This document shows, in pieces, positions 12,394-51,828 of a stretch of DNA of 61,701 nucleotides; the stretch's first letter is position 1, and every line of letters begins with the position of its first letter. Both the position numbers and the translations under genes were made by a program. Location: NCBI GenBank assembly GCA_018693105.1, contig JABHLN010000006.1, positions 1 through 61,701 on the forward strand. The letters are read 5' to 3'. This stretch comes from Desulfobacterales bacterium (GTDB lineage: Bacteria > Desulfobacterota > Desulfobacteria > Desulfobacterales > SURF-7). Under the pieces are notes generated by a model. It searched no databases. It was not told the origin of the DNA and saw only the letters and a program-made list of their open reading frames with translations.

Positions 12394-12517
12394 TTCATGA
12401 ACTATTTAAAAAATATAACCGGCGACTATATACAAATTGCCACATACAACTCATAGTGGTTTATCAGTATTGAAGGCGTACATGTAGTATTTCCAAATTC
12501 TCATAAAATCTATAACC
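12394..12517 (+). mobile_element. MITE-A copy 2, heavily decayed
   Basis: Retains TATAACC..CATACAA..CATAGTGGTTTATCAG..TGAAGGCGTACATGTAGTAT..CTATAAC in the right order and spacing. Confidence 0.7.
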
Positions 12518-12572
12518 AGATTAACAGCGCAATCACTTCCATTAGCTTAAACAATCAATTCAGGAGAAAATC

Positions 12573-14710: not shown

Positions 14711-14862
14711 TTCTTCTCCGAAAAATTTAATCAATTAAAATACATCTAAAAAAAATATTTCTTAAGACTTGAAAACATAGACTAAAAGGCCTTTTGTGTC
14801 AAATTTGCTGCTCATATAAATATTTGCCACCGTCAGCTTAATATTCAACACACCTTAATATT

Positions 14863-15014
14863 GATGAATTCGTAAAAAGCATAACCGATGGCTAAGTAAA
14901 AATCTTCATATACAAGGCATAGTGGTTGGCCAGGCACGAAGACATACAATTAGTATGTCGAGCGTCTGGCCAAACGCTATAACGCAGTAAATGGTGACTT
15001 TTTACGACGCCATC
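14863..15014 (+). mobile_element. MITE-A copy 3 (intact, 152 bp)
   Basis: GATGAATTCGTAAAAAG...CTTTTTACGACGCCATC; perfect 6-bp TSD AATATT (14857-62, 15015-20). Confidence 0.93.
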
Positions 15015-15079
15015 AATATTCAACACACAATGATTAAGCCTGGTGCTCAACGAAGAACCTGTTTAAGACCTTGGAAGTG

Positions 15080-17292: not shown

Positions 17293-17341
17293 TTACACAC
17301 TTAACAGCCTGCTTCATTAACTAAAATATTTAATAAGATTT

Positions 17342-17493
17342 GACAAACTCATGAAAAAAATAATTGATGGTTAAATAAAGATCTTCATATACAAGTAATA
17401 GTGTTTGGACAGGAGTGAAGGCATATATGAAATATGTCAAAATTCTGATCAACAGCTATAACACAATAGAGGGAGACTTTTTACAACACCATC
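17342..17493 (+). mobile_element. MITE-A copy 4 (diverged); overlaps stop codon of the lipoprotein gene
   Basis: Collinear with other copies over 152 bp; ends GGAGACTTTTTACAACACCATC. Confidence 0.87.
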
Positions 17494-17728
17494 ATTCTTC
17501 CATAGTATCTTCTATCTGCTCGGCATTTTGATCATGCATATCCTGAACAGACCGCGCTTTGTTAAGAGGATCATTTATTTTATCAAGAGCATCGGCGGCA
17601 ACCTGATCTGTCATTTTTTCTATCGCACCTTTTTCCTTTTTGACTTCCTCTTCCTTCTTGGAACAACTTAAAAAAAGTATACAAAAAAAAGACAATCCTA
17701 TTACCATATATATAAAAGCTTTTTTCAC
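17492..17728 (-). CDS. Small putative lipoprotein
   Basis: Basic N-terminus, hydrophobic stretch, LSC lipobox, charged tail; GTG start after GGGGGA. Confidence 0.7.
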   Translation of the reverse strand: MKKAFIYMVIGLSFFCILFLSCSKKEEEVKKEKGAIEKMTDQVAADALDKINDPLNKARSVQDMHDQNAEQIEDTMEE

Positions 17729-20772: not shown

Positions 20773-20858
20773 TATAGTTGCCAAAAACCACCAAGTATGA
20801 ATATTTTAGTATTTACTTTTAAACAGTATTTCTTGAAAAAAATTATGATTTAAACTTT

Positions 20859-21010
20859 GATGAACTCGTAATAAGTATAACCGATGGCTAAGTAAGAATC
20901 TTCATACCCGAGGCATATTGATTGGCAAGGTGCGAAAACATACAGTTAGTATGTAGAGCACCTGACCAAAAGCTATAACACAGTAGATGGAGACTTTTTT
21001 CAACGCCATC
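20859..21010 (+). mobile_element. MITE-A copy 5 (152 bp)
   Basis: GATGAACTCGTAATAAG...TTTTTCAACGCCATC; flanks AACTTT/AAATTT (5 of 6 match). Confidence 0.9.
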
Positions 21011-21049
21011 AAATTTTCATACGGCAGGATTCTTAAGGGGGGTGTTATT

Positions 21050-22624
21050 ATGGGTCAAACTTATGACGCAATTATTATAGGCGCTGGTATGGGCGGCCTT
21101 ATGTGCGGTAATTTTCTTGCAAGAAAAGGCTGGAATGTAATTATTCTTGAGCACAACCATCAGCCCGGCGGATTAATGACAGGTATTAAACGAAAAGGTT
21201 TTTACTTCGACACCGGCGACCAGTCGATGGAAGACTCAGGTATAATATTTCCTCTGCTAAAACTTCTTGACCTCTATGATGAGAATGAATGGGACAACTG
21301 TACCGTTCGCTACATTATAAAAGACAGGCTTGATTATGTATTGGATAACTATGAGAATATGGCGGAAAAATTCTGCGAAGCCTTTCCAAAAGATAAAAAA
21401 GGTATCACAAACCATTTCAAAAAAATATCTGATTTCAGTGACCTGTTAAATGAAATTAGGCTCAAAGCCCTTATGCCGAACACATCGGAAGGTATTAAAA
21501 GAATAGTAAATTTTATCAGATTTATGGCGCTTAATATAAAAAATTTTAAGAAAGCAAAAGAGCTGTTTGCCGGCAAGTTCGACGATATGATAAAAAAAGA
21601 TATTTCTGATCCTGAGGCTGTTGAATTCCTTGTTTCTATGGGATACCCGGAACAGAGTATGTTTATGGGAGTAGGTGCATTGAACTGCCATGTTAACGAT
21701 TACTGGTATCCAAAAAACGGCATCCAGGGAATAATAAACAAGCTGGCTGATAATTTCAAAGCATTGGGTGGTGAGATCAAATACAAGACTCTTGTTGATG
21801 AAATTCTGCTTGATGGAAAACGGGTAAAAGGTGTTAAAACTAATAATGGGGATGAATTTACATCAAAAAAGGTTGTAAGCTGTGGTGATATGGTCAGATT
21901 GTTTACCGAGATGCTGCCCCAAAATATCGCCAAACCCGAATACATAAAAAAGATTACTGAAGCGCCTGTTACAGAACCGTTTGCAAGTGTATATATCGGT
22001 CTTGACATTCCCCAGGAGGATCTAACAAAAATACTAAAAGCTCACCACACATTCTATTTCACTCAATTACACAGAAATGATATTTCTAAAGTTGATGATC
22101 CGGATCTTCACAGCAGGGGATGGATTGAAATTAATGCTCCCGGAGTGAGTTGCCCGGAGCTGATGCCCGAAGGCAAGTCAGCAATAACCGTCCAGATATT
22201 AACCAACTACAAATGGATGGACAATTGGGGAACAGGGGGTGATGATACTGCTCGGCCTGAAAAATATAGAGAACTTAAAAACAAAGTGGCAGATGATGTT
22301 CTTGATATGGTCGAGAATGTAATTCCCGATATCAGGGAAAAAATCGAATTTCTTGATGTCAGTACCCCTCTGTCAACAATCAGGTTCACTTTAAACAAGG
22401 ACGGTGCTTCATGCGCATTTACAGTTGATCCTGATAAGTCTCCATTTGCGGAAGGGCCTTATCCATTCAGAACACCTGTAAGGGGTTTGTATCAGGCAGG
22501 GCACTGGACATACTGGCCGGGAGGTGTAATTGGTGCAGCCATGTCAGGCAAAATGGTTGCCTCAAAAATGATTTCGGGTAGGTTTTCTGATTTGACTGAT
22601 AGAATATATCAGATATTTCATTAG
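21050..22624 (+). CDS. Phytoene desaturase/retinol saturase-like FAD oxidoreductase (COG1233)
   Basis: YDAIIIGAGMGGL, EHNHQPGG, STPLS, GLYQAGHW..PGGGV-like C-terminus; true start MGQTYD behind GGGGGTG (track start lies inside the MITE). Confidence 0.88.
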   Translation: MGQTYDAIIIGAGMGGLMCGNFLARKGWNVIILEHNHQPGGLMTGIKRKGFYFDTGDQSMEDSGIIFPLLKLLDLYDENEWDNCTVRYIIKDRLDYVLDNYENMAEKFCEAFPKDKKGITNHFKKISDFSDLLNEIRLKALMPNTSEGIKRIVNFIRFMALNIKNFKKAKELFAGKFDDMIKKDISDPEAVEFLVSMGYPEQSMFMGVGALNCHVNDYWYPKNGIQGIINKLADNFKALGGEIKYKTLVDEILLDGKRVKGVKTNNGDEFTSKKVVSCGDMVRLFTEMLPQNIAKPEYIKKITEAPVTEPFASVYIGLDIPQEDLTKILKAHHTFYFTQLHRNDISKVDDPDLHSRGWIEINAPGVSCPELMPEGKSAITVQILTNYKWMDNWGTGGDDTARPEKYRELKNKVADDVLDMVENVIPDIREKIEFLDVSTPLSTIRFTLNKDGASCAFTVDPDKSPFAEGPYPFRTPVRGLYQAGHWTYWPGGVIGAAMSGKMVASKMISGRFSDLTDRIYQIFH

Positions 22625-35177: not shown

Positions 35178-35314
35178 AATTGTTCCGGAAAAAGTATCCG
35201 GTATTGTAATAATTAGGTTTAATCATAAATCCAAAATACTACATGTATGCCATCAGACCTGACTGTACACTATAAATTGTATATAATGATCCGTGAAGAG
35301 CTTACGCAACCATC
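35178..35314 (-). mobile_element. MITE-A decayed copy, the only one on the minus strand
   Basis: Reverse complement reads ATCATTATATACAATTTATAGTGTACAGTCAGGTCTGATGGCATACATGTAGTAT, collinear with the family core. Confidence 0.7.
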
Positions 35315-35438
35315 ATTTATAATTTTTTATGCATCCTTACAATTTTAAAAAAAATATAAGCAACAGAGTTCTTTATGGAACATTTTTCAAGACTACAGAT
35401 CAGGTTTTAAATACTTCTGATTTTACCCATTTAAACAG

Positions 35439-36413: not shown

Positions 36414-38069
36414 CTAAGACAGAAGTTTCCTCAGGTCTTTTCTTAATATTTTTCCCACTGTCGTTTTAGGTAGATCCGGCATGAATTCTATCTGTGTTGG
36501 AAGCTTGTATTTTGCTACCTTGTCAGCACAGAAATTTATCATTTCTTCTTCAGTTGCAGTTTCTCCCTCTTTTAGCGCAACAAACACCTTTATCTGCTCA
36601 CCTCTTGTTGGATGCGGTATACCAACAGCACATGCCTCCTTAACTTTTGGATTCTCGAAAAACACTTCATCTATTTCTCGTGGAAAAACATTGTAGCCCC
36701 CTGAGATTATCATATCCTTCTTACGGTCAACAACATAGAAGTAGCCGTCCTCATCCATTTTCACGATATCTCCTGAATAAAACCATCCATCACGAAGTGC
36801 ATTTTCCGTTTCACCGGGCATATTCAGATAGCCTTTCATCACCTGCGGCCCTTTAATAACAAGTTCACCCTCTTCTCCAACAGGAACTTCCTTTTCACTG
36901 TCTTCGATATCAACAACACGGCATAAAGTATCAGGAAAGGGAATTCCTACGCTTCCTATACGCCCTTTTCCCCTTTTAAAAGGATTTGCTGTAACAGCAG
37001 GGGAACACTCGGTCATACCAAGCGCCTCTACAATAAACGCTCCTGTTTTACTCTCAAATTCCTTAATAACTTCTACAGGAAGTGGAGATGCACCACAGGT
37101 GCATCCTTTCAGACATGAAAAATCAATATTGTCAAAATCCGGATGATTCAGGATACCGATATACATTGTAGGGGCCATTGGTACATAATTCGGCTTATAT
37201 TTTCTTATTGAATCCAGAAGGACATCAGGCTGTGGTTTTGTTACAAATATGCTTCTGCCTTCCATGTAAACTACCATGCTCATAAGTGTTAACCCGAACA
37301 CATGGAATATCGGCATGGCAGCAAGGGCCTTGAAATCTTCATCTTTTAAATCCTGAAACCAAACAGCTACCTGTTGTGTTTGTGTACTCATATTTCCGTG
37401 AGTAAGTATGGCCCCCTTGGAAACACCGGTAGTCCCGCCCGTATACTGATAAATAGCAGTATCTTCAAAAGACATTTTAACCTCAGGTGGCTCCGGCGGA
37501 TATTTTTCCAATATATCATTCCATTTAAAAACATCATCCGCATCTGCAACATCAACAAAAAGCTCTTTTTCCGGGGATGGATGATAATCCCCCATTGAAG
37601 TATAAATAATCTGTTTGATTCCTGTTTCAGACCGCAGGTCAACCATACGATTAACAAGAGCATCAAATGTTATTAGAACCTTTGATCCGGAACCGCTTAA
37701 CTGGTGCTTAAGTTCCCGGTCAGATGAAAGGGGATTGTTCATTACAACAATTCCACCGACTTTAAGTATTGCGAAAAGCCCAACAGCAACAGGGATAAGG
37801 TTTGGAAGAAGAATAGCAACACTGTCGCCTTTTTTTACTCCAAAATCCGCAAGGCAGGTAGCCATCCGGTTTACATAATCATAAAACTCCCGATAGGTGA
37901 TTTCATAACCTTCATATTCAAATGCAACCCGTTCAGGACAATTTGCAACAGTCCTTTCTAAAAAGTCAGAAAGAGTCTTTTCTTCATAATCTATGTATTC
38001 AGGTATTCCTTCAGCATAATGAGCCAGCCAAGGTTTATCCTCATATCTAACTTTTTCTCCCATATCCAT
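36414..38069 (-). CDS. fadD: Long-chain fatty acid-CoA ligase
   Basis: YQYTGGTTGVSKG, GMTE, GPQVMKGY, SGGYNVFPRE, VGKILR. Confidence 0.9.
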   Translation of the reverse strand: MDMGEKVRYEDKPWLAHYAEGIPEYIDYEEKTLSDFLERTVANCPERVAFEYEGYEITYREFYDYVNRMATCLADFGVKKGDSVAILLPNLIPVAVGLFAILKVGGIVVMNNPLSSDRELKHQLSGSGSKVLITFDALVNRMVDLRSETGIKQIIYTSMGDYHPSPEKELFVDVADADDVFKWNDILEKYPPEPPEVKMSFEDTAIYQYTGGTTGVSKGAILTHGNMSTQTQQVAVWFQDLKDEDFKALAAMPIFHVFGLTLMSMVVYMEGRSIFVTKPQPDVLLDSIRKYKPNYVPMAPTMYIGILNHPDFDNIDFSCLKGCTCGASPLPVEVIKEFESKTGAFIVEALGMTECSPAVTANPFKRGKGRIGSVGIPFPDTLCRVVDIEDSEKEVPVGEEGELVIKGPQVMKGYLNMPGETENALRDGWFYSGDIVKMDEDGYFYVVDRKKDMIISGGYNVFPREIDEVFFENPKVKEACAVGIPHPTRGEQIKVFVALKEGETATEEEMINFCADKVAKYKLPTQIEFMPDLPKTTVGKILRKDLRKLLS

Positions 38070-38285
38070 CTCCTTTTGCTTTATAACTTTTCCATGTTTT
38101 TCCTTAAGAAATATTCAACCCGTAAAGCCGTATCACATATTAAATTCATCGGCAATCAAAGATACTGCAGTATGTATAATTATCCCCGAGACAACTTGAG
38201 ACCTTTGCAGAATGCTCATTATTGTTCAAGTTCAAGGAAGATGAAAATTTTATACCGGGATGACTTTGAACTAGGAGGAAAAGAA

Positions 38286-38323
38286 AAAGACCTTTGAAAA
38301 AAGTAAATTCTCCAAAGGTCTTT
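38286..38323. terminator. Hairpin downstream of the 38418 ligase
   Basis: AAAGACCTTTG / CAAAGGTCTTT perfect 11-bp inverted repeat. Confidence 0.55.
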
Positions 38324-38417
38324 GTAAATGCACCACATAGCAAAGGGAATGAAAAAGTAAGCAACGGATTGCTGCTTACTGAAACATGATTTCGGTTACA
38401 GGTCGATCATAATAATA

Positions 38418-40031
38418 TCATTTCATACAATCAGGATATTTAAATACATTCGAAGCATCCTTGCTGAAATCATCCTTTAACAGCCGACCAAGGTTTTTCT
38501 CAGATGCTGTCTTTGGAATTTCATCAACAACCTGAAGGTATGTGGGAATAAAACTCTTTTCAAGGTCTGAATTCAAGAGTGCTTCAAAGATATTTTTAGG
38601 TATTATTTCCTGGCCGGGAACAGCATTTAATGCAGCAACTATATCGCTTTCTCCAGGTGCTCCTGACTCTGCAGGAACTCCGTATACACATACATCGGAA
38701 ACTTCCGATAACTCAGCCATTGCCTTCTCAATAGATTCCGGAATTACAAAATCACCCTGACGCCTTAGCCCGCCACCCATACGAAAATCAAAAAACAACC
38801 AGCCATCTTCATCCTTGTGGACCATATCCCCTGTCCTGAGCCATCCTCCGCGGGTTTTTTCCTCTGAAGCTTTTTTGTTACCAATATACTCAACCTCGGT
38901 TTTTCCCTGTGGTAATCTCCCGATCAGTTCACCTATTTCACCGGGGTCAGTTTCAGTATCATCTTCTCTAACAACCTTCATCTCCCACATTCCTTCAAGG
39001 GGCTTTCCAAAAGATCCTATGGGACCGGCACCCACCGGATTATGTGCGAAGCCACCTTCAACAGTTCCGTACCATTCATGAATTTTTAAATTGAACCGTT
39101 TTTCAAAATTTTCCCAGATGGTTCTAGGTGTACCGGCACTGAGTACTTTTATGACCGGATTATCACCATCATTTGGTTTAACAGGTTCTGAATAAATTCC
39201 CATCATCATTCCACCAAGAAGAGAAAAAGTGGTGCATCCATATTTCCTGCACACATCCCAAATTCGGCTTTTTGTGAATTTGCGACTTATTACGCCTGGA
39301 ATAGAAAGAGTCAGAGCCGGAAGCATTGTAACGGCATTTGCATTTCCATGGGAAAGAGAAAGCCCGGTATAAAGTATATCATTCTCATCATACTGCCAGA
39401 CAAGCTTTGAAACAGCTTCTATACCCAGAAACCTATCGGCTTTACTTGTAACACCTTTGGGATTTCCTGTAGTCCCTGATGTATAAACTATCATAAAAGG
39501 ATCATTCAGAGAGTGCTGATCGGGAACTAAGCCGGGGGCCTCCGGACCTTCGAGTATTTCCTCCATACCTTGATATTTTGATGTGTCTACACCTTCAAAA
39601 TAATCACGGTTCATTACACTGACAAAATTCAGGTCAGGAATTGCCGGCAGCACTTTTTCCATATTCCCCATGAACTCACCGGCAAAGATAACACCTTTTG
39701 AGTTTGAATCTTTTATCTGGTATATCAGTTTATCACCTTTAGTGCGGGGATCTACAGGAACTATTACGGCTCCAAGGGCTGAAGCGGCATATTGGGCAAT
39801 AATTACTTCAGGGTGATTGCGAAGCAGGATTGTAAATACATCACCACGTCCTATGCCTTTCTTTTTTAATGCCTGAGCCAGTTTATTCCCCTTAAGAACA
39901 AGGTCAGAATAGGTTAGCACCTCATCAGAATATGGATGACATTCAAATGTCAAAACCTTGAAATCAGGTTTTTCCTCGGCTTTTGCCATCATTTCAAAAG
40001 CCATAATCCCGGGTAATTTACTTTCAGCCAT
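38418..40031 (-). CDS. CaiC/FadD17-like acyl-CoA ligase
   Basis: YTSGTTGNPKG, HGNA, YGTVEG, RTGD, PKTASEK. Confidence 0.9.
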   Translation of the reverse strand: MAESKLPGIMAFEMMAKAEEKPDFKVLTFECHPYSDEVLTYSDLVLKGNKLAQALKKKGIGRGDVFTILLRNHPEVIIAQYAASALGAVIVPVDPRTKGDKLIYQIKDSNSKGVIFAGEFMGNMEKVLPAIPDLNFVSVMNRDYFEGVDTSKYQGMEEILEGPEAPGLVPDQHSLNDPFMIVYTSGTTGNPKGVTSKADRFLGIEAVSKLVWQYDENDILYTGLSLSHGNANAVTMLPALTLSIPGVISRKFTKSRIWDVCRKYGCTTFSLLGGMMMGIYSEPVKPNDGDNPVIKVLSAGTPRTIWENFEKRFNLKIHEWYGTVEGGFAHNPVGAGPIGSFGKPLEGMWEMKVVREDDTETDPGEIGELIGRLPQGKTEVEYIGNKKASEEKTRGGWLRTGDMVHKDEDGWLFFDFRMGGGLRRQGDFVIPESIEKAMAELSEVSDVCVYGVPAESGAPGESDIVAALNAVPGQEIIPKNIFEALLNSDLEKSFIPTYLQVVDEIPKTASEKNLGRLLKDDFSKDASNVFKYPDCMK

Positions 40032-40070
40032 AACTTATCTCCTATTATTATATGTTTTTTTCGCAAGTTT

Positions 40071-40221
40071 GATGAACTCGTAAAAAGTATAACCGATGGC
40101 TAAGTAAAAATCTTCATATACAAGGCATAGTGGTTGATCAGGAGTGAAGGCATACATGCAGTACGTCGAACTTCTGATCAACCGCTATAACGCAGTAGAT
40201 GGAGACTTTTACGACGCCATC
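40071..40221 (+). mobile_element. MITE-A copy 6 (best preserved, 151 bp)
   Basis: GATGAACTCGTAAAAAGT...ACTTTTACGACGCCATC; perfect TSD AAGTTT (40065-70, 40222-27); fully paired 19-bp inner stem. Confidence 0.95.
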
Positions 40222-40313
40222 AAGTTTTATTCCAAAATAATTACTGATAATATCATAAAAGCCTTCCATCTGCATGGTTATTGAAAATTAAACTTTTTAC
40301 AAAAGCATTATTT

Positions 40314-40919
40314 TTAATCATTATCCGGAATAAGAAAACCTTTGATTGCCCTTACAAAAGATGCCTTTGCCCAGGCTGTAGTATGAGATTCCGGATCAAG
40401 AAACCACCGTGTAGCTATTCCTTGAGAAAAAGAACAAATAGCCCTTGCTGTGCTGTCAGGGTCAACACCAGTAAAGGTTTCGTTGCTAAGCCCGTCCTCA
40501 ATAACACCCTTCACTAGTTCTACCCAGCTTTCCACCCAATCATGGTATATAGTACGATATTCTTCGTCATGTATTGCCATGGACATACAGTCAATAAGGA
40601 TAGTAAACCCTATATTGCTATCAGAATCCCTCCGGTCATAAAGTGTCTGGAATGATAAAAGTTTTTCCAGGGGTTCGCCGTATTTTTCCATATTTTCTTC
40701 ACTTCTTTCGAGAATACGGCTGAAAAATTCATTAAAAACTGCTATGAAAAGTTCTTTCTTGGAATGAAAATAATGTGCAAGGCCGCCCTTGGAAAAGCCG
40801 GCAGCTTTTGCAATATCTGCCATTGTCACATTAGCATAACCCGAAGATGAAATTATCTTCATCCCGGCATTTAATATCTGGGTTTTTCTTATTGTTTCCA
40901 GCTCAGGTATATGAGGCAT
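40314..40919 (-). CDS. TetR-family regulator (BetI-like)
   Basis: VTMADIAKAAGFSKGGLAHYFHSK; start MPHIPE after AGGAG. Confidence 0.92.
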   Translation of the reverse strand: MPHIPELETIRKTQILNAGMKIISSSGYANVTMADIAKAAGFSKGGLAHYFHSKKELFIAVFNEFFSRILERSEENMEKYGEPLEKLLSFQTLYDRRDSDSNIGFTILIDCMSMAIHDEEYRTIYHDWVESWVELVKGVIEDGLSNETFTGVDPDSTARAICSFSQGIATRWFLDPESHTTAWAKASFVRAIKGFLIPDND

Positions 40920-40960
40920 AAATAAACTCCTGTGAACCCATAAAATCATATATTTCTACA

Positions 40961-41003
40961 ACCGACCGACTAACTGGACTGTTGACAGGTCAGCTGGTCG
41001 GTC
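40961..41003. promoter_or_regulatory. Possible TetR operator halves ACCGACC...GGTCGGT
   Basis: Inverted 7-mers just upstream of the TetR start. Confidence 0.4.
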
Positions 41004-41308
41004 ACTGAACCGTGTTAAAAAATCCTCCCATTAAAGTCAAGTCCTTTTTATTAATTTCCAATCTAAAAAAATATAATAATTACAAATTCAACAAAGACTT
41101 TACCTGTATGGCAGGGTTATCATAACAATGTATTGAAAATTATTAACGGTGAAAAACATGTCCCTTTATTGACCGTATTTATTATCGCTGATAGAAATAT
41201 GAAAAACCCACACAAGCCATATTTCTTGAACTTTTTTATTTTTATGTTAGTTATATCAATTCAATTTAATCATTAATAAAAGAAAGTTATTATCAGGAGA
41301 AACCATTC

Positions 41309-42544
41309 ATGACTAAAAAAAACAATGACAGGCAAAGCAAACCCGGCCCGCTTGATGGAATAAAAGTTGTCGAATATGGTGTGTTTCATGCTGGTCCGGG
41401 AGCAAATGCCATTCTGGGCGATCTTGGCGCAGAAGTTATTAAAATAGAGGCGGCTTCGGGAGACCCTTTACGATTATGGACAAAATCAGGTGAAAGAAAT
41501 TTTTCATTACCTAACGGCGAAGGCCTCCTTTTTGAAGTTTCAAACCGTAATAAGCAGGGAATCTGCCTCGATATAAAGAATGAAAAAGGATATGAAATTT
41601 TTCTTGATATGATTAAAGATGCTGATATTTTTCTCACAAACCTGAGGAAAAGTACAAAGAAAAAATTGGCTATTGATTATGATACACTATCTAAAACCAA
41701 CCCTAAACTTATACATGCAAATGTTTCAGGATACGGACCTGAAGGCCCCCTGAATAATATGGGTGCATTTGATCCCATGTGCCAGGGACGTTCAGGAATG
41801 ATGTATATTACCGGTTCGGAGAACCCAGTGCTTATCCAGTATGCTGTTCTTGATCAAGCCACAGCCATTGCAGCCAGTCAGGCGATAATGACTGCACTTT
41901 TTATAAGAGAACGGCAGGGGATTGGCCAGGAAATTCATATTTCCCTTTACAGCACAGCCATATGGCTTCTTCATTTCAATATGTTAATGACCAGCATGCT
42001 TTCAGAAAATCCGAATGTTCCCTGGATCCGTTCCTCAAACTCTCCCCTGCGCAACAACTTTCAATGCAAGGACGGGAAATGGATCATAGGAGTCCATCAC
42101 CCCGAAGAAAAATACTGGAAACCTTTTTGCAAGGCTACAAACAGAGAATCACTCATAGAGGATCCTCGTTTTATAGACCTTGAACATCGAATCAAAAATT
42201 GCAAGGAGTTGATAGCAATATTTGATGAGGTTTTTGAGACAAAAACACGGGATGAATGGATGGAAATACTGCCTGGTTACGGCCTTATGTTCACATCAGT
42301 TCAAGACATTTCAGAAGTATTAGATGACCCGCAGGCATTGGAAAACGATTATGTCGTTGATTTTGATTATGATGAATTCGGATCCTTCAAAATACCGGGC
42401 TATCCTGTACACTTCAGCACATTTCAGGCAGGCACAAAGACAGGAGCACCCAAAATAGGCGAGCATACCGATTTAATTATGGGGAAAATGGGGTACACCG
42501 CCGAGCAGATTGATGAACTTAGAAAAGAAGGTATAATAAATTGA
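41309..42544 (+). CDS. CaiB/BaiF family III CoA-transferase
   Basis: GPLDGIKVVE, LGDLGAEVIKIE, NRNK, GAFD, PKIGEHT. Confidence 0.95.
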   Translation: MTKKNNDRQSKPGPLDGIKVVEYGVFHAGPGANAILGDLGAEVIKIEAASGDPLRLWTKSGERNFSLPNGEGLLFEVSNRNKQGICLDIKNEKGYEIFLDMIKDADIFLTNLRKSTKKKLAIDYDTLSKTNPKLIHANVSGYGPEGPLNNMGAFDPMCQGRSGMMYITGSENPVLIQYAVLDQATAIAASQAIMTALFIRERQGIGQEIHISLYSTAIWLLHFNMLMTSMLSENPNVPWIRSSNSPLRNNFQCKDGKWIIGVHHPEEKYWKPFCKATNRESLIEDPRFIDLEHRIKNCKELIAIFDEVFETKTRDEWMEILPGYGLMFTSVQDISEVLDDPQALENDYVVDFDYDEFGSFKIPGYPVHFSTFQAGTKTGAPKIGEHTDLIMGKMGYTAEQIDELRKEGIIN

Positions 42545-44540: not shown

Positions 44541-44594
44541 GATGAACTCGTATAAAGTATTAACGATGGTTAAGTAGAAATCTTCATAGCCATC
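44541..44594 (+). mobile_element. MITE-A copy 7, internally deleted (54 bp)
   Basis: Both left-end boxes joined directly to terminal GCCATC; hairpin core missing. Confidence 0.85.
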
Positions 44595-49271: not shown

Positions 49272-49420
49272 AATGATATTTCAAAAAATAACATATGGCT
49301 AAATAAAATTCTTTATATACAAGACATATCGGTTGGTCATAAGTGAAGGCATATATCTAGTATGTCTAACTTCTAACCAATCCCTATAACACAGTAGATG
49401 GAGATTTTTACAACGCCATC
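49272..49420 (+). mobile_element. MITE-A copy 8 (diverged); overlaps DUF4198 stop codon
   Basis: Collinear core; ends AGATGGAGATTTTTACAACGCCATC. Confidence 0.85.
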
Positions 49421-50198
49421 ACTTCTGCTGCCATTCCACAAACTCCACCCATATCACAGCTCCCAGCTCAACATCTTTATCTTCACCCTTATATTTCATC
49501 TTTTTATCGGAACCGTTGAGTGCCGCAAAACCCCACCAACCTGACTTTGAAACAGCATAAGTAAAAACACCATTCATATCGGCTTTAACTGTCTGGGTAA
49601 CCATATAGTCAGTAGGAGCCATAGCTTTTCCATCCTGGTTAAAATATTCTACTTCAACAATAGAACCCGGCACCGGTTTACCATCAAGCATAACAACACC
49701 CTGAAATACATTTCCTGCGTAAAGACCGAATGGTCTTGTCAGAGGAACAATTTCTGTTTTCAAACCCAGTGGCTCATCCCATCCGTCTTCATATCCAAAT
49801 GAGGCAATTACAGTTTTTGTATAATGAATAATAAAACAATCTTCCGCCGGTTCCCAATATGGTTCAGGTTCCATAAAGAAGGCATAAACACCCGGTCGTT
49901 TAACCTTGTAATTTATAGTCCATGCGGTATTTTCAAACACCTTCGTCTCTTTCAATGCCCCAAGAAGATTTTGGACTTTCCCATCGCTTACAACCGAAAA
50001 TTTAGCCGGCTTAACCATGATCATGCCGATACCTTCAAAAGGATGAGAAAAAGAAATATTTAGAGAAACCTTTTGTTTATCTCCCTGCATAACCATACTA
50101 TCAGATGGAACAAGCATGCCGAAATGAGCAAGTGCATTACCTGTCATCATTAATAAAAAAACTCCTGCCGTAAATAAAACTTTTGTTTTTTTTCTCAT
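49419..50198 (-). CDS. DUF4198 periplasmic Co/Ni-uptake protein (NikK/NikM-associated)
   Basis: ALA|HF signal cleavage leaving an N-terminal His; FSHPFEG, PYWEPAED, EIVPLTRPFGL, GWWGFAAL. Confidence 0.88.
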   Translation of the reverse strand: MRKKTKVLFTAGVFLLMMTGNALAHFGMLVPSDSMVMQGDKQKVSLNISFSHPFEGIGMIMVKPAKFSVVSDGKVQNLLGALKETKVFENTAWTINYKVKRPGVYAFFMEPEPYWEPAEDCFIIHYTKTVIASFGYEDGWDEPLGLKTEIVPLTRPFGLYAGNVFQGVVMLDGKPVPGSIVEVEYFNQDGKAMAPTDYMVTQTVKADMNGVFTYAVSKSGWWGFAALNGSDKKMKYKGEDKDVELGAVIWVEFVEWQQK

Positions 50199-50214
50199 TT
50201 TCATCTCCTTATAT

Positions 50215-50356
50215 TAATAAATATAACTGATGGTTAAGTATAAATCTTCATATATTAGGCATATTGGTTAATTAGTGAAGAAGACATACATGTAGTATGT
50301 CGAATTTCTGATAAACGAATATAACGCAGTATATGGAGACTTTTTACGACACCATC
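50215..50356 (+). mobile_element. MITE-A copy 9 (left end eroded)
   Basis: TATAACTGATGGTTAAGTA...GGAGACTTTTTACGACACCATC. Confidence 0.87.
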
Positions 50357-50467: not shown

Positions 50468-50597
50468 TTTTCATCAATCTTGTCCGGTTTTTTTCAGGTA
50501 AATATTATTCCCGTACCGAAGAGTATAATTTTACCTTGATTCAAAGATGCAAAACGATAGTCAACTGATAAAGAATTTTTCCATAATTTATATTATT

Positions 50598-50749
50598 TAT
50601 ATACTCGTAAAAAGCACAACAGATTGCTAAGTAAAAATCTTCATATACAAGGCATAATGTTTGGTCAGTCGTGAAGGCATACATGTAGTATGTCAAACGT
50701 CTGGCCAAACATTATAACGCAGTAGATGGTGACTTTTTACGACGCAATC
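50598..50749 (+). mobile_element. MITE-A copy 10 (152 bp)
   Basis: ACTCGTAAAAAG...GACTTTTTACGACGCAATC; flanks ATTATT/ACTATT (5 of 6 match). Confidence 0.9.
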
Positions 50750-50750
50750 A

Positions 50751-51368
50751 CTATTTTTCTTTGCTTTTAAAATAAAGAGCAATCCCAACAAGTCCTAATA
50801 TGTAGCCAAAACCACCCATTATATCGGTAAAATCGGGCCCCTTTTCTTCCCGGATTTTTGCAATAGTCCTTGAAACAGGCTTCAACCTTGAATCAACAAC
50901 CTCTTCCACAACCTTTCTTATCTGTTCAATATCAACTGAAACTTTAGTGGATGCTACCTTTACGTCTTCTTCTTCTTTATTAATGAGAGTCGATGTTAAA
51001 GTAGCGTTATCCTCCTGAAGTTCATCTGCTTTTAATAGATATTCAGCTTTATGTCCCATACTGGATTCCATAACAATTCGAAGATCTGATTTGACCGGAA
51101 TCTTGAACGAAAATGCACCTTTTCTATTTGTTACCCCTTCCAATAATTTTTTGCCTGACATGTCAAAAACTTCAACATGCCCTCCAATTACTTTCTTTTT
51201 TCCACTGAAATAACTGTCAACATAAACGGTATCACCTTCACCCCATGCAAAAAGATAAACCTTGTGAGCATAAACCGATGAGGTAAAACTTAATAAGAAG
51301 AATAAGATTGTCATGGTTAAAAAAAATCGACCGAGTAAGATAAACGAAAAATATTTTTTCCCCTTCAT
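50751..51368 (-). CDS. CbiL/NikL-like Co/Ni transport component
   Basis: VYA|HKV N-terminal His, MGH motif, C-terminal TM DIMGGFGYILGL. Confidence 0.78.
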   Translation of the reverse strand: MKGKKYFSFILLGRFFLTMTILFFLLSFTSSVYAHKVYLFAWGEGDTVYVDSYFSGKKKVIGGHVEVFDMSGKKLLEGVTNRKGAFSFKIPVKSDLRIVMESSMGHKAEYLLKADELQEDNATLTSTLINKEEEDVKVASTKVSVDIEQIRKVVEEVVDSRLKPVSRTIAKIREEKGPDFTDIMGGFGYILGLVGIALYFKSKEK

Positions 51369-51526: not shown

Positions 51527-51553
51527 TATCTATTTTCTTAAACACTCACCTTT

Positions 51554-51711
51554 GATTAACTCGTAAAAAGTCAACTCGGGATGGCAAAGTAAAAAGTTCA
51601 AGATCAGGGCGGCGCAAAATTCGAGGAATGAGGTGTACTTAAAGTACGACGCAGTGATCCCGCCATGGCGGGACAGCGTAACGCAGACATTGAACTTTTT
51701 ACGAAGCCATC
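51554..51711 (+). mobile_element. MITE-A sister-subfamily copy (158 bp) with 16-bp palindrome
   Basis: Same doubled left end and CTTTTTACGAAGCCATC right end, different core; flanks ACCTTT/ACCTTA. Confidence 0.85.
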
Positions 51712-51828
51712 ACCTTAATACCGGTACTTTTATATATCAGGCCTTCAACTCCTAACTTTAAAATGTGTCGCTACAATCTTTTATGGTTTCAGAAATTTTA
51801 TTATAAATATCCATTTCTTGATTTATCC

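Follow-up and report, generated by a model that had tools for sequence, protein, structure and literature searches.

A MITE family of Desulfobacterales with IS1182-like ends and a covarying, strand-biased hairpin

The 153-bp repeat at positions 40070-40222 (+ strand) of the window, i.e. the whole 61,701-nucleotide stretch of Desulfobacterales DNA analysed here (contig JABHLN010000006.1), is almost certainly one copy of a MITE, and the pairing constraint that acts on its long hairpin is very probably genuine. This constraint is probably specific for the top strand (5'-L1...R1-3'), on which G-T/G-U pairs are kept and A-C oppositions are not. The reading that best explains these observations, to which we give about even chances, is that a single-strand fold is maintained by selection acting on how well the element itself propagates.

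Organisation and distribution of the repeat

The copy under study ends in TGATG...CATCA and was delimited by a full-length nhmmer match (score 165.4), by reading of the sequence and by folds. It is bordered by a 4-bp target-site duplication, AGTT, read at 40066-40069 on the left and, as the same four bases, at 40223-40226 beyond the right end. The end motif GATGnnnnnGTAAAAA is present in three copies per element, two on the left (L1 and L2) and one on the right (R1), all on the + strand of this copy. The outer left terminal repeat L1, TGATGAACTCGTAAAAAGT (40070-40088), matches one IS end and forms an unpaired 5' tail in the + strand fold; the inner copy L2, GATGGC...GTAAAAA (40095-40113), is strongly conserved between genomes and pairs at the hairpin base with R1, the right terminal repeat GACTTTTACGACGCCATCA (40204-40222), which matches the other IS end. 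As terminal inverted repeats, TGATGAACTCGTAAAAAGT and TGATGGCGTCGTAAAAAGT, the latter being the right end in reverse complement, agree at 16/19 positions.

The hairpin comprises L2, R1 and the interior. Its variable core stem, recognised by reading, fold and alignment, has ATAGTGGTTGATCAGGAGT as 5' arm (40127-40145, +) and ACTTCTGATCAACCGCTAT as 3' arm (40170-40188, +), on either side of a conserved apical stem-loop which in this copy reads GGCATAC / ATGCA / GTACGTC (40149-40167, +). Base and apical stem are conserved in sequence, whereas the 19-bp middle stem is free in sequence, provided that both arms change together. In one lineage, the apical stem is shortened and the spacing of its half-sites altered, with the hairpin kept. 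Folding of the whole repeat gave -62.7 kcal/mol for the + strand (z = -8.87, 0/200 shuffles as good) and -53.7 for the - strand (z = -6.2).

An earlier, sequence-only reading of this DNA had singled out the hairpin and its compensatory changes. The 19/19 pairing that it reported for the core stem of this copy was found again, ATAGTGGTTGATCAGGAGT and ACTTCTGATCAACCGCTAT forming 17 Watson-Crick and two G-U pairs, as was that of the arms AGGTGC/GCACCT in the copy at 20859 (6/6 paired). For the copy at 14863, said to have arms changed on both sides together, the joint alteration is real (GATC to GGCC, and A:T to C:G) but the pairing is imperfect, the 12-nt arms forming ten Watson-Crick pairs, one G-U pair and one A-C mismatch. 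Similarly, the apical stem does stay paired under a varying loop (helix 4 is 97.5% paired across the alignment, the consensus being GGCATAC-N5-GTATGTC), but the details given for the copy under study were inexact: its loop is ATGCA, not ATGTA, and its 3' apical arm, GTACGTC, leaves one A-C mismatch.

As for coding potential, only 3-codon mini-ORFs were read in this copy. A scan of the region 39950-40400 for consensus promoters and terminators located none within the repeat. Rfam 15 gave no match over the whole window at gathering thresholds and, for the repeat at E <= 10, only chance-level miRNA and snoRNA matches (E >= 1), none of them meaningful.

The window holds 12 copies, 11 on the + strand and one on the - strand. 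Besides the copy under study, those on the + strand comprise five of full length: 14861-15015, with a GGCC-type core stem, and 20857-21011 (both by reading and nhmmer), 17340-17494 (diverged, score 101), 50597-50750, whose R1 tip is abutted by the stop of a - strand ORF (50751-51368), and 51552-51712 (diverged, score 62.5). One copy without most of L1 (49284-49421) has as its terminal TCA the stop codon (TGA on the - strand) of a DUF4198 gene (49419-50204, -), and another (50215-50356) is without the outer part of L1. The remaining ones found by nhmmer are a partial copy covering model positions 4-127 (12397-12519), a short derivative made of L1 and L2 plus a right-end stub (44541-44591), the right half of a copy of which the rest is cut off by the contig start (2-77) and the sole - strand copy, also partial (35217-35327). 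A conserved 19-mer, searched with at most three mismatches, occurs six times in the window vs. 0.02 expected.

The repeat occupies 496 non-overlapping loci, 243 with a full-length copy, in the 3.24 Mb of this marine Desulfobacterales genome, which amounts to 1.9% of the sequence. Sixty-one of the 496 loci reach a contig end, the assembly having 342 such ends in total. Since the family takes up about 2% of this genome and lies at so many contig ends, its recognition should be useful for the assembly and annotation of Desulfobacterales MAGs.

Target duplications and partner insertion sequences

An exact 4-bp target duplication flanks 78 of 184 copies, vs. a mean of 4.9 and a maximum of 14 in 1000 shuffles, and three or more of the four duplication bases match in 110/184 copies (shuffled mean 33.9). 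A per-position register test also indicated a 4-bp duplication, and the target site is palindromic (A|ANNT|T).

Related genomes contain 1.9-kb insertion sequences flanked by the same two ends and with the same duplication length as the MITE. They carry a single ORF coding for an IS1182-like DDE transposase of 587-597 aa. The element of genome G043 (L109, 590-2484) has the TIR TGATGCCTTCGTAAAAAG, the duplication AATT and a 592-aa ORF, and two IS copies of genome G042 have the ends TGATGGCGTCGTAAAAAG (identical to R1 of the MITE) and TGATGGACTCGTAAAAAG (L1 type), with the duplications ACTT and AATG. Positions 2-22 of the MITE agree with the IS end at locus L117 in 20 of 21 bases, and its positions 139-154 with the second IS end in all 16; the likeness is limited to about 20 bp per end, the MITE interior being unrelated to the IS. 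In Pfam, the partner transposase passes the cut-offs of DDE_Tnp_1_6 (8.9e-17, 62 bits vs. 25.1) and DDE_Tnp_1 (1.9e-8, 34.7 bits vs. 23). Its best NCBIfam model is IS1182 (NF033551, 2.8e-41) and, since the score of 141.9 bits falls below the curated cut-off of 270, the partner ISs may form a sister group to IS1182. Judging from these sequences, an IS1182-like transposase would move the repeat in trans. The TIR/TSD-bounded MITE nature and the IS1182-like partner were both absent from the earlier reading.

The G043 transposase, used as query, had no match in the assembly to which the window belongs, in which Pfam DDE_Tnp_1_6 is represented by one 86-aa relic without ends, and IS-sized pairs of ends gave no size class beyond about 236 bp. 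Because this assembly, 91.8% complete and of a kind in which repeats are frequently left unassembled, shows no transposase of this kind, mobilisation in this genome may be past rather than present. Both flanks could be aligned at two orthologous loci, and both (2/2) are filled in the relative and empty in this genome, a sample too small for a statement on retention. Derivatives devoid of the core have multiplied as well, as 92-bp and 62-bp forms at seven and eight different loci, respectively, and several sister families combine the same ends with different interiors.

Two other candidates for the partner were rejected: an rve-type transposase, for which there was a single unrelated broken match, and a Y1/RAYT transposase, the one clear Y1_Tnp gene of this genome not being associated with the repeat. 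A REPIN-like nature of the repeat, with a Y1 (RAYT/IS200-type) enzyme mobilising it in single-stranded form, is a very remote prospect. Its pattern is that of the REPINs as described in PMC3116915, and the genome does have the Y1_Tnp gene (C150:19277-19636), but 4-bp target duplications exist, the ends are identical to those of DDE-type ISs, and the Y1 gene is unflanked by the repeat (its nearest copies being at distances of about 8 kb and 3.5 kb) and has different hairpins of its own.

Covariation and strand asymmetry of the hairpin

Covariation, which the sequence-only reading had suggested testing on aligned copies, was assessed on 92 copies from 19 genomes over 52 pairs, with 500 shuffles and slid partners as controls, and the signal exceeds both. 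Paired cells make up 91.2% of the total vs. 83.7% after shuffling, double-change cells number 349 vs. 104 in the shuffles and 45-123 with slid partners, and the covariation score is 0.251 vs. 0.117 (shuffled) and 0.040-0.076 (slid); not one of the 500 shuffles reaches any of these measures. In the core helix, changes on both sides preserve the pairing at 18 of the 19 pairs, so that the interior, as had been claimed, is not neutral filler. Within this genome, positions 69-70 and 109-110 read AT/AT in 51 copies and GC/GC in 38, with 2+2 discordant ones, and at least eight different complementary combinations occur at positions 63-65 and 114-116.

Concerning the strand, the fold of the + strand is the more stable one in 86 of the 92 copies, and each of the 19 genome groups shows the same on average, in line with the strand-specific constraint proposed earlier. 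In this genome, it folds better in 152/184 copies with RNA parameters and in 173/184 with DNA parameters. The ratio of G-U to A-C in the core stem is 181:38 overall, G-U being in excess in 18/19 groups, and still 95:36 once the two consensus G-U columns are removed. Counted as parsimony events, changes from Watson-Crick pairs led to G-U in 198 cases and to A-C in 149, while mutation in unpaired columns leans the opposite way, towards A-C (196 vs. 221). The same polarity was seen in 15/18 copies of a sister family with a different core (genome G005), five of which were re-oriented after a reversed extraction. In terms of events, the G-U excess is modest (198:149). Moreover, the G-U:A-C ratio is alike on internal (40:30) and terminal (158:119) branches, which is at odds with a model in which selection acts on master lineages alone.

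Concerted changes of the two arms could also be produced by mutation itself with no selection on structure, either by template switching during replication or by mismatch correction in an extruded hairpin, a double change then being a single event. Template switching is reported (PMC8794818) to give rise to hairpins and to preserve them, with substitutions that look compensatory. Sequence exchange does occur in the family, as seen from chimeric copies whose two arms come from different subfamilies, and the 61 single-branch changes from one Watson-Crick pair to another (all-column tree) are, by a rough estimate, more than independent double hits would produce. Trees built from 184 short and related repeats have poor resolution, and this count varies between 61 and 176 with the choice of columns for the tree. 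Such upkeep is nevertheless an unlikely explanation. Conversion removes G-T and A-C alike and cannot yield the top-strand bias (181:38 with 18/19 groups, or 95:36), the background leaning to A-C in any case. Single-step intermediates exist (27 G-T and 15 A-C at the switch pairs 69:110 and 70:109), three consensus G-T pairs remain instead of having been "perfected", and the apical stem is conserved while the stem beneath it gets replaced.

A function of the double-stranded DNA, with the arms as symmetric sites for a dimeric protein or as a cruciform uniting the ends and no single-stranded stage, is more improbable still. L2 and R1 being copies of the end motif, the similarity of protein sites would alone suffice for their pairing; the apical half-sites are conserved around a variable loop, and DNA of 153 bp is stiff for end synapsis, which also counts in favour of this explanation. 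On the other hand, variation within the element is highest in the middle stem, which is thus not a sequence-specific site, and the lineage with altered half-site spacing has kept a hairpin. Moreover, each G-T in one strand of a cruciform corresponds to an A-C in its complement, and no strand bias would then be expected, yet a bias is seen.

Neighbouring genes, transcription and decay of the copies

The relation of the family to its neighbouring genes is strongly polar. Of 130 gene stops facing R1, 58 lie inside the tip of the element and 35 within 1-10 nt of it (93/130 in all), vs. three inside and five within 1-10 nt (8/96 in all) for the 96 stops facing L1. The right-end TGA is the stop codon of 41 ORFs, the family hence supplying stop codons for dozens of genes. 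Among 130 copies with co-directional neighbours, the + strand is sense in 48 and antisense in 82, the bottom strand being the co-transcribed one in the latter.

The simplest account of the polarity at stop codons is that the two orientations affect the upstream mRNA differently, which speaks for the main proposal of the earlier reading, i.e. a cis-acting RNA element whose co-transcribed hairpin would work as a 3'-end stabiliser, an RNase III/E site or a terminator-like block, as in REP, ERIC and Correia. The intergenic placement of the family (only 4/243 copies lie inside ORFs) and its long-term tolerance of G-U pairs point in the same direction. So do the pieces of the family that occur, mostly with other flanks, in contigs of two marine-sediment RNA libraries, although these are assembled contigs that reveal neither strand nor transcript ends nor expression, in which a lack of coverage carries no meaning, and which do not by themselves establish transcription.

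The RNA-stability/RNase III reading, however, needs the + strand in the mRNA, and this strand is sense in only 48 of the 130 cases; both genes flanking the copy under study are on the - strand. The strand that keeps G-U is antisense to the co-directional neighbours in 82/130 and in nearly all stop-docked copies, and in the usual mRNA the G-U pairs therefore become C-A mismatches. The two comparable orthologous loci are empty, the repeat has neither a consensus promoter or terminator nor an Rfam match, and derivatives that had lost the core still multiplied. A cis-acting RNA is thus rather unlikely. What stands of the earlier proposal of a folded RNA or single-stranded DNA is the constrained, strand-specific interior. 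A structure-recognised mobile single-stranded DNA may still apply; the RNA-stability/RNase III part is not supported by the orientation of the copies.

The breakage of stems argues in the same sense. Beside the 198 and 149 changes to G-U and A-C, 281 led from Watson-Crick pairs to other mismatches, and the stem changes are near the spectrum of the unpaired columns, where transitions and transversions number 417:370. Resident copies thus decay almost neutrally. Rates on terminal branches nevertheless differ between regions, with about 7 per column in L2, the apex and R and 13-17 per column in L1, the linker and the loop, for which reason some constraint may also act on resident copies.

As a proxy of replication, GC skew places the top strand on the C-rich strand in 165/243 copies. 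If the G-rich strand is the leading one, the top strand would mostly be on the leading-strand template and seldom single-stranded, which counts against single-stranded DNA as the folded form. Gene orientation and replication direction are hard to separate here, as the strand of the genes goes along with the regional skew (r = 0.79) and the cases of disagreement between the two are split 17 vs. 20.

A possible role of the hairpin in propagation

According to the preferred reading, the hairpin would serve the propagation of the element, as opposed to the host at individual loci. To go on transposing, a lineage would have to retain a foldable top strand, and copies would decay almost neutrally once inserted. 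The fold would most likely be adopted as single-stranded DNA exposed in replication or transposition, the alternative being a transcript of the top strand; the former is a tentative choice and the latter a somewhat weaker one. A second filter could operate at the host level, the survivors being copies with R1 at a gene stop codon and the bottom strand read into mRNA; the opposite orientation beside a stop codon is hardly ever found.

DDE transposases of the IS4/IS5 kind are known to act on double-stranded ends, and a single-strand step has no known precedent among them. It is a long shot that an IS1182-like DDE system should need the folded top strand of its passenger in cis, as single-stranded DNA or RNA, for efficient mobilisation, and equally speculative that the conserved apical stem-loop, the G-T wobble and the spacer stem of free sequence should be the parts of such a device. 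If true, the element would be a mechanistic hybrid between cut-and-paste MITEs and hairpin-recognising single-stranded DNA elements (IS200/IS605, REPINs, attC), and the opposite bias in chromosomal orientation would reflect the loss, or the activity, of copies with an exposed top strand.

The conflict between the strand that keeps the wobble pairs and the strand usually transcribed is the sole feature that a specialist of mobile DNA would not predict. With hundreds of copies, sister families and partner transposases, the family offers a natural experiment on why bacterial MITEs keep long hairpins, in which the options (a service to host mRNAs, to the element's own transposition, or a mutational mechanism alone) are testable.

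Comparison with known systems

ERIC/IRU of enterobacteria, Correia/NEMIS of Neisseria, and RUP and BOX of pneumococci are MITEs that form long RNA or DNA hairpins. The repeat resembles them in its size class (100-200 bp), its hundreds of intergenic copies, its TIRs and target duplication, its foldback over the whole length and its orientation-dependent relation to neighbouring genes. It differs in sequence, host clade (Desulfobacterales) and IS1182-like partner with a 4-bp duplication, in its asymmetric ends (L1 and L2 on the left, a single site on the right), in a wobble bias that favours the strand usually not in mRNA, and in the right-end TGA that serves 41 ORFs as stop codon. A search of the literature, closed supplements and subscription journals aside, retrieved no description of the family, nor of any MITE of the IS1182 type that has a hairpin like this one, which does not prove their absence from print.

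As for the IS1182 family, the candidate partners (1.9 kb, one ORF of 587-597 aa) have IS1182 as best model, with a score below the curated cut-off, and the MITE has in common with these IS1182-like elements only about 20 bp at each end. The attC sites of integrons are imperfect palindromes in which structure is conserved over sequence and which are used as a folded single strand, asymmetries setting the choice of strand. Structure kept over sequence in an imperfect palindrome is found here as well, but attC sites stand in cassette arrays beside an integrase and have no target duplications, whereas the repeats described here are dispersed and TIR-bounded.

REPINs are described in PMC3116915 as having conserved ends, a spacer for which length and hairpin capacity are what matters, common compensatory changes and a 5' tail with complementarity to the 3' end. 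Conserved ends, a hairpin-only spacer, compensatory changes, a tail and replication within the genome are thus common to both; REPINs are not known to generate a target duplication and are associated with a Y1 (HUH) transposase acting on single-stranded DNA, whereas the present family has 4-bp duplications and the ends of DDE-type ISs. Among these systems, the element is of a known kind, a MITE, with an unusually clear structural constraint.

Copy number, ends and partner insertion sequence

In the genome to which the window belongs as contig C128 (G000; 3.24 Mb, 171 contigs, 38% G+C, 91.8% complete), iterated nhmmer searches recovered 496 non-overlapping repeat loci, which cover 1.9% of the sequence and include 243 full-length copies (135 on the + strand, 108 on the - strand). 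Sixty-one of the 496 loci touch one of the 342 contig ends. The window holds 12 loci, 11 of them on the + strand. The terminal inverted repeats are TGATGAACTCGTAAAAAGT and, read from the opposite end, TGATGGCGTCGTAAAAAGT (L1 and R1, respectively), and a third, inner copy of the end motif (L2), GATGGCTAAGTAAAAA, is set 25 nt inward from the left end. An exact 4-bp duplication outside TGATG/CATCA was found in 78 of the 184 flanked full copies, vs. a mean of 4.9 and a maximum of 14 in shuffles, and a register test returned the same duplication together with a palindromic target consensus, T-x-A-A|NN|T-T-x-A. The 153-bp copy under study (40070-40222, + strand) is flanked by AGTT (40066-40069 and 40223-40226).

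No IS-sized pair of ends was present in the G000 assembly (91.8% complete). An end-motif scan of long-contig relatives led to a 1.9-kb element in G043, a related genome, with the TIR TGATGCCTTCGTAAAAAG, an AATT duplication and a 592-aa ORF carrying the Pfam domains DDE_Tnp_1_6 and DDE_Tnp_1; its best NCBIfam model is IS1182, at 141.9 bits and thus under the cut-off of 270. Another relative, G042, has about 358 end motifs and two full copies of a protein 48% identical to the G043 transposase. In both G042 elements, flanked by ACTT and AATG duplications, the end upstream of the transposase gene, TGATGGCGTCGTAAAAAG, is exactly the right end of the repeat, the other end, TGATGGACTCGTAAAAAG, being of the left-end type. 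The window copy matches these IS ends at 20/21 and 16/16 positions and nowhere else in the IS; since the matches are confined to the ends, the repeat is a MITE whose interior is unrelated to its IS. These data establish a MITE with an IS1182-like partner.

Searching the G000 assembly (91.8% complete) with the G043 transposase gave no match, and the only trace of the partner's domain there is an 86-aa open frame (contig C24:23337-23594, - strand), which lacks recognisable ends, matches the C-terminal part of DDE_Tnp_1_6 and is probably the remnant of a partner-type IS. G000 also has an intact-looking Y1_Tnp (IS200/RAYT-type) gene (C150:19226-19666, - strand), which bears small hairpins of its own (CCACG...CGTGG) on either flank and has no relation to the MITE. 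Both G042 IS copies (loci L117, 1259-3476, and L120, 1309-3460) fill exactly the 4-bp gap between two end-to-end MITE copies, and the MITE target consensus, TCAA-NN-TTGA, resembles two abutted element tips; the partner transposase therefore seems to favour insertion beside existing ends. G000, too, has tandem copies spaced 4-6 bp from each other, e.g. C150 5331-5481 and 5488-5639.

Hairpin structure and covariation

The sequence-only reading had described the interior as a strand-specific hairpin with compensatory base changes. Its 19-bp core is present as claimed in the copy under study, where all 19 positions of 40127-40145 pair with 40170-40188, two of the pairs being G-U. The + strand of the 155-nt repeat folds at -62.7 kcal/mol (z = -8.87, equalled by 0/200 shuffles) and the - strand at -53.7 kcal/mol (z = -6.2). 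The copy at 20859 likewise has the reported AGGTGC/GCACCT arms, paired 6/6 and differing from the 40071 copy on both sides; the one at 14863 is altered on both sides too, but its 12-nt arms are imperfect (10 Watson-Crick, 1 G-U, 1 A-C). As for the apical stem-loop (consensus GGCATAC-N5-GTATGTC), conservation of the stem and variability of the loop stood, but the 40071 copy itself has the loop ATGCA, the 3' arm GTACGTC and one A-C mismatch.

Within G000, the middle stem contains the least conserved columns. At positions 69-70/109-110 of the repeat model, 51 copies are AT/AT, 38 GC/GC and only 2+2 fully discordant, the remainder being single-step intermediates; at pair 75:104, 98 copies have A:T and 43 have C:G, and positions 63-65 and 114-116 show many complementary combinations. 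A cross-genome alignment was built from 92 copies in 19 genome groups, 59 from other genomes and 33 from G000 (5 window copies and 28 distinct full copies from sampled loci). Paired cells reach 91.2% in this alignment vs. 83.7% in shuffles, and both sides have changed at 30 of 52 pairs, in 349 cells, vs. 19.7 pairs and 104 cells. None of the five covariation measures was reached by shuffles (0/500), and slid-partner controls gave 45-123 double-change cells, so that the compensatory changes exceed both controls. Double changes affect 18 of the 19 core pairs, 14 of the 16 pairs that RNAalifold predicts on this alignment carry compensatory changes, and in some genomes the entire stem has been swapped for an unrelated yet complementary sequence. 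The apical stem, but not its variable loop, is conserved in sequence, and so is the base, made up of L2, R1 and 15 adjoining nt. The pairing constraint is real.

Strand bias

The claimed strand specificity is upheld: the + (top) strand is the more stable in 86 of the 92 aligned copies, on average in each of the 19 groups, and in 152 (RNA parameters) or 173 (DNA parameters) of 184 G000 copies. Core-stem cells hold 181 G-U vs. 38 A-C, G-U outnumbering A-C in 18 of the 19 groups and equalling it in the other; without the two columns of G-U consensus, the counts are 95 and 36. Parsimony on a FastTree of 184 copies gave 198 Watson-Crick to G-U events vs. 149 to A-C (binomial p ~0.01), on trees of short repeats that are weakly resolved, Watson-Crick to Watson-Crick counts ranging from 61 to 176 depending on the tree. 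Unpaired columns lean the opposite way (C>T plus A>G, 196; G>A plus T>C, 221; chi-square ~7.7 for the contrast with stem changes), so mutation bias does not explain the G-U excess. Template switching (PMC8794818) would account for the double changes seen here but leaves this strand bias unexplained, and a duplex or cruciform function predicts no bias at all.

A sister family in the related genome G005, which combines the ends of this MITE with another core, has the same polarity in 15 of 18 copies once five reversed copies are reoriented by their ends; before this correction the count was 12 of 18. This family (L102-L107, L127-L139) shares the L1-L2...R1 layout and the 4-bp duplications, its core is unrelated, and its size classes of 153, 185 and 222 bp differ by apex insertions.

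Decay, derivatives and selection

Beside the 198 G-U and 149 A-C events, 281 changes from Watson-Crick pairs gave other mismatches, part of which belong to a third subfamily (31 copies, imperfect core) that the alignment handles poorly. The stem-event spectrum is near the unpaired transition:transversion ratio (417:370), and resident copies decay near-neutrally. Two derivatives without the core stem, one of 92 bp (a single identical junction, 7 loci) and one of 62 bp (8 loci), have spread: their flanks differ at all loci, and exact duplications were found in 2/6 scorable copies of each form. Both loci at which the two flanks could be aligned to another genome are filled in the relative and empty in G000. 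Terminal-branch rates in L2, the apex and R are about half those in L1, the linker and the loop, and the GU:AC ratio is equal on internal (40:30) and terminal (158:119) branches; both observations count against selection acting purely on the element.

The third subfamily (31 G000 copies, e.g. C87:4269-4422 and C57:10136-10289) resembles the G005 and CAVSJK-type elements. Its L2 is GATGGCAAAGTAAAAAG, its apical stem GGCGTAC/GTACGCC is perfect and without G-T, and an internal loop interrupts its imperfect middle stem. G000 contains another abundant palindromic repeat, which, with the core AGTCCCGCTATAGCGGGATT (e.g. C21:3126-3250, C82:45171-45240 and C106:56991-57060), gave 61 strand-hits at ≤3 mismatches, equivalent to roughly half that number of loci given its palindromic form. 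Some of its copies sit between the L1/L2 and R1 ends described above, and most are located elsewhere.

Orientation and gene context

Gene contexts were derived from crude ORF-based calls (2620 ORFs, 83% of G000). Only 4 of the 243 full copies fall within ORFs and 12 at contig edges; 130 lie between co-directional genes, 48 between convergent and 49 between divergent ones. In the co-directional class, the + strand is antisense to its neighbours in 82 cases and sense in 48 (p = 0.0036). It is on the C-rich strand in 165/243 copies (orientation vs. regional GC skew, r = -0.27, a proxy applied to a fragmented MAG whose replication origin is not placed), and this orientation persists in convergent and divergent contexts (63 vs. 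34).

The strongest gene-context effect was an unexpected polarity towards R1. Among 130 gene 3' ends facing R1, the stop codon is inside the element in 58 and 1-10 nt away in 35, vs. 3 and 5 among the 96 facing L1. The terminal TGA supplies 41 of the stops inside the R1 end, and the TAA eleven bases inward supplies 14. An example in the window is the DUF4198 gene at 49419-50204 (- strand), whose TGA stop (49419-49421) consists of the final three bases of the repeat copy 49284-49421. Because the two tips have the same sequence (TGATG) and the local target shows no asymmetry, the source of this polarity must be either selection on the mRNA after the stop codon or a directional cue at insertion. 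Both the top-strand bias beyond mutation and the polar R1/stop-codon association are established. A host-selected mRNA element, as the sequence-only reading had allowed, matches the stop-codon polarity but neither the strand bearing the wobble pairs nor the near-neutral decay.

The longest ORF at 20987-22624 (+ strand) begins at an ATG inside the copy at 20857-21011 (AGATGGAGAC); the gene itself probably starts downstream of this ATG, and genes may therefore be over-extended into repeat copies by automatic annotation. Around the copy under study, window positions 36414-42544 encode two acyl-CoA ligase-like proteins, a TetR-family regulator and a family III CoA-transferase-like protein, a gene set that suggests a cluster for fatty-acid or organic-acid activation. 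Family members with other flanks occur in contigs from two marine-sediment RNA libraries, strand and transcription not being readable from contigs.

Proposed mechanism

We propose that the hairpin is used in propagating the element itself, in the form of a folded single top strand that could be ssDNA or RNA. The conserved apex and the wobble pair would be the specific features of this strand, the middle stem would be a spacer needing only to pair, and the host would then sort insertions by orientation. From the orientation data, the usual mRNA is the bottom strand, and from the skew proxy the top strand is mostly on the usual leading-strand template. In one coherent reading, copies with an exposed top strand would be the active ones and would therefore be depleted.

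Distribution and related systems

Of the 40 relatives searched, 14 gave a match to the repeat, with a patchy spread across several families of the order. Exact matches to a 23-mer from the repeat occur in many MAGs carrying the labels Desulfobacterales, Desulfobacteraceae, Desulfocapsaceae, Desulforhopalus, Desulfobacula or 'Deltaproteobacteria', and in one labelled WOR-3. In a MAG labelled candidate division WOR-3, a 3.8-kb contig (L041, JAMOPK010000065.1) carries two near-consensus copies, which suggests a mis-binned Desulfobacterales contig or horizontal transfer.

No description of this MITE family and its partner was found in the open-access literature. The kind of element is already known, and the family is an added member. 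Of specialist interest are the wobble-pair strand, opposite to the one usually transcribed, and the right-end TGA that serves as the stop codon of dozens of genes. ERIC and Correia elements are bacterial MITEs with whole-length foldbacks, a likeness that this repeat shares. REPINs, as described in PMC3116915, show the same pattern of conserved ends, a spacer needing only a hairpin and compensatory changes; the REPIN/RAYT system itself is excluded here because the 4-bp duplications are present and the partner is DDE-type.
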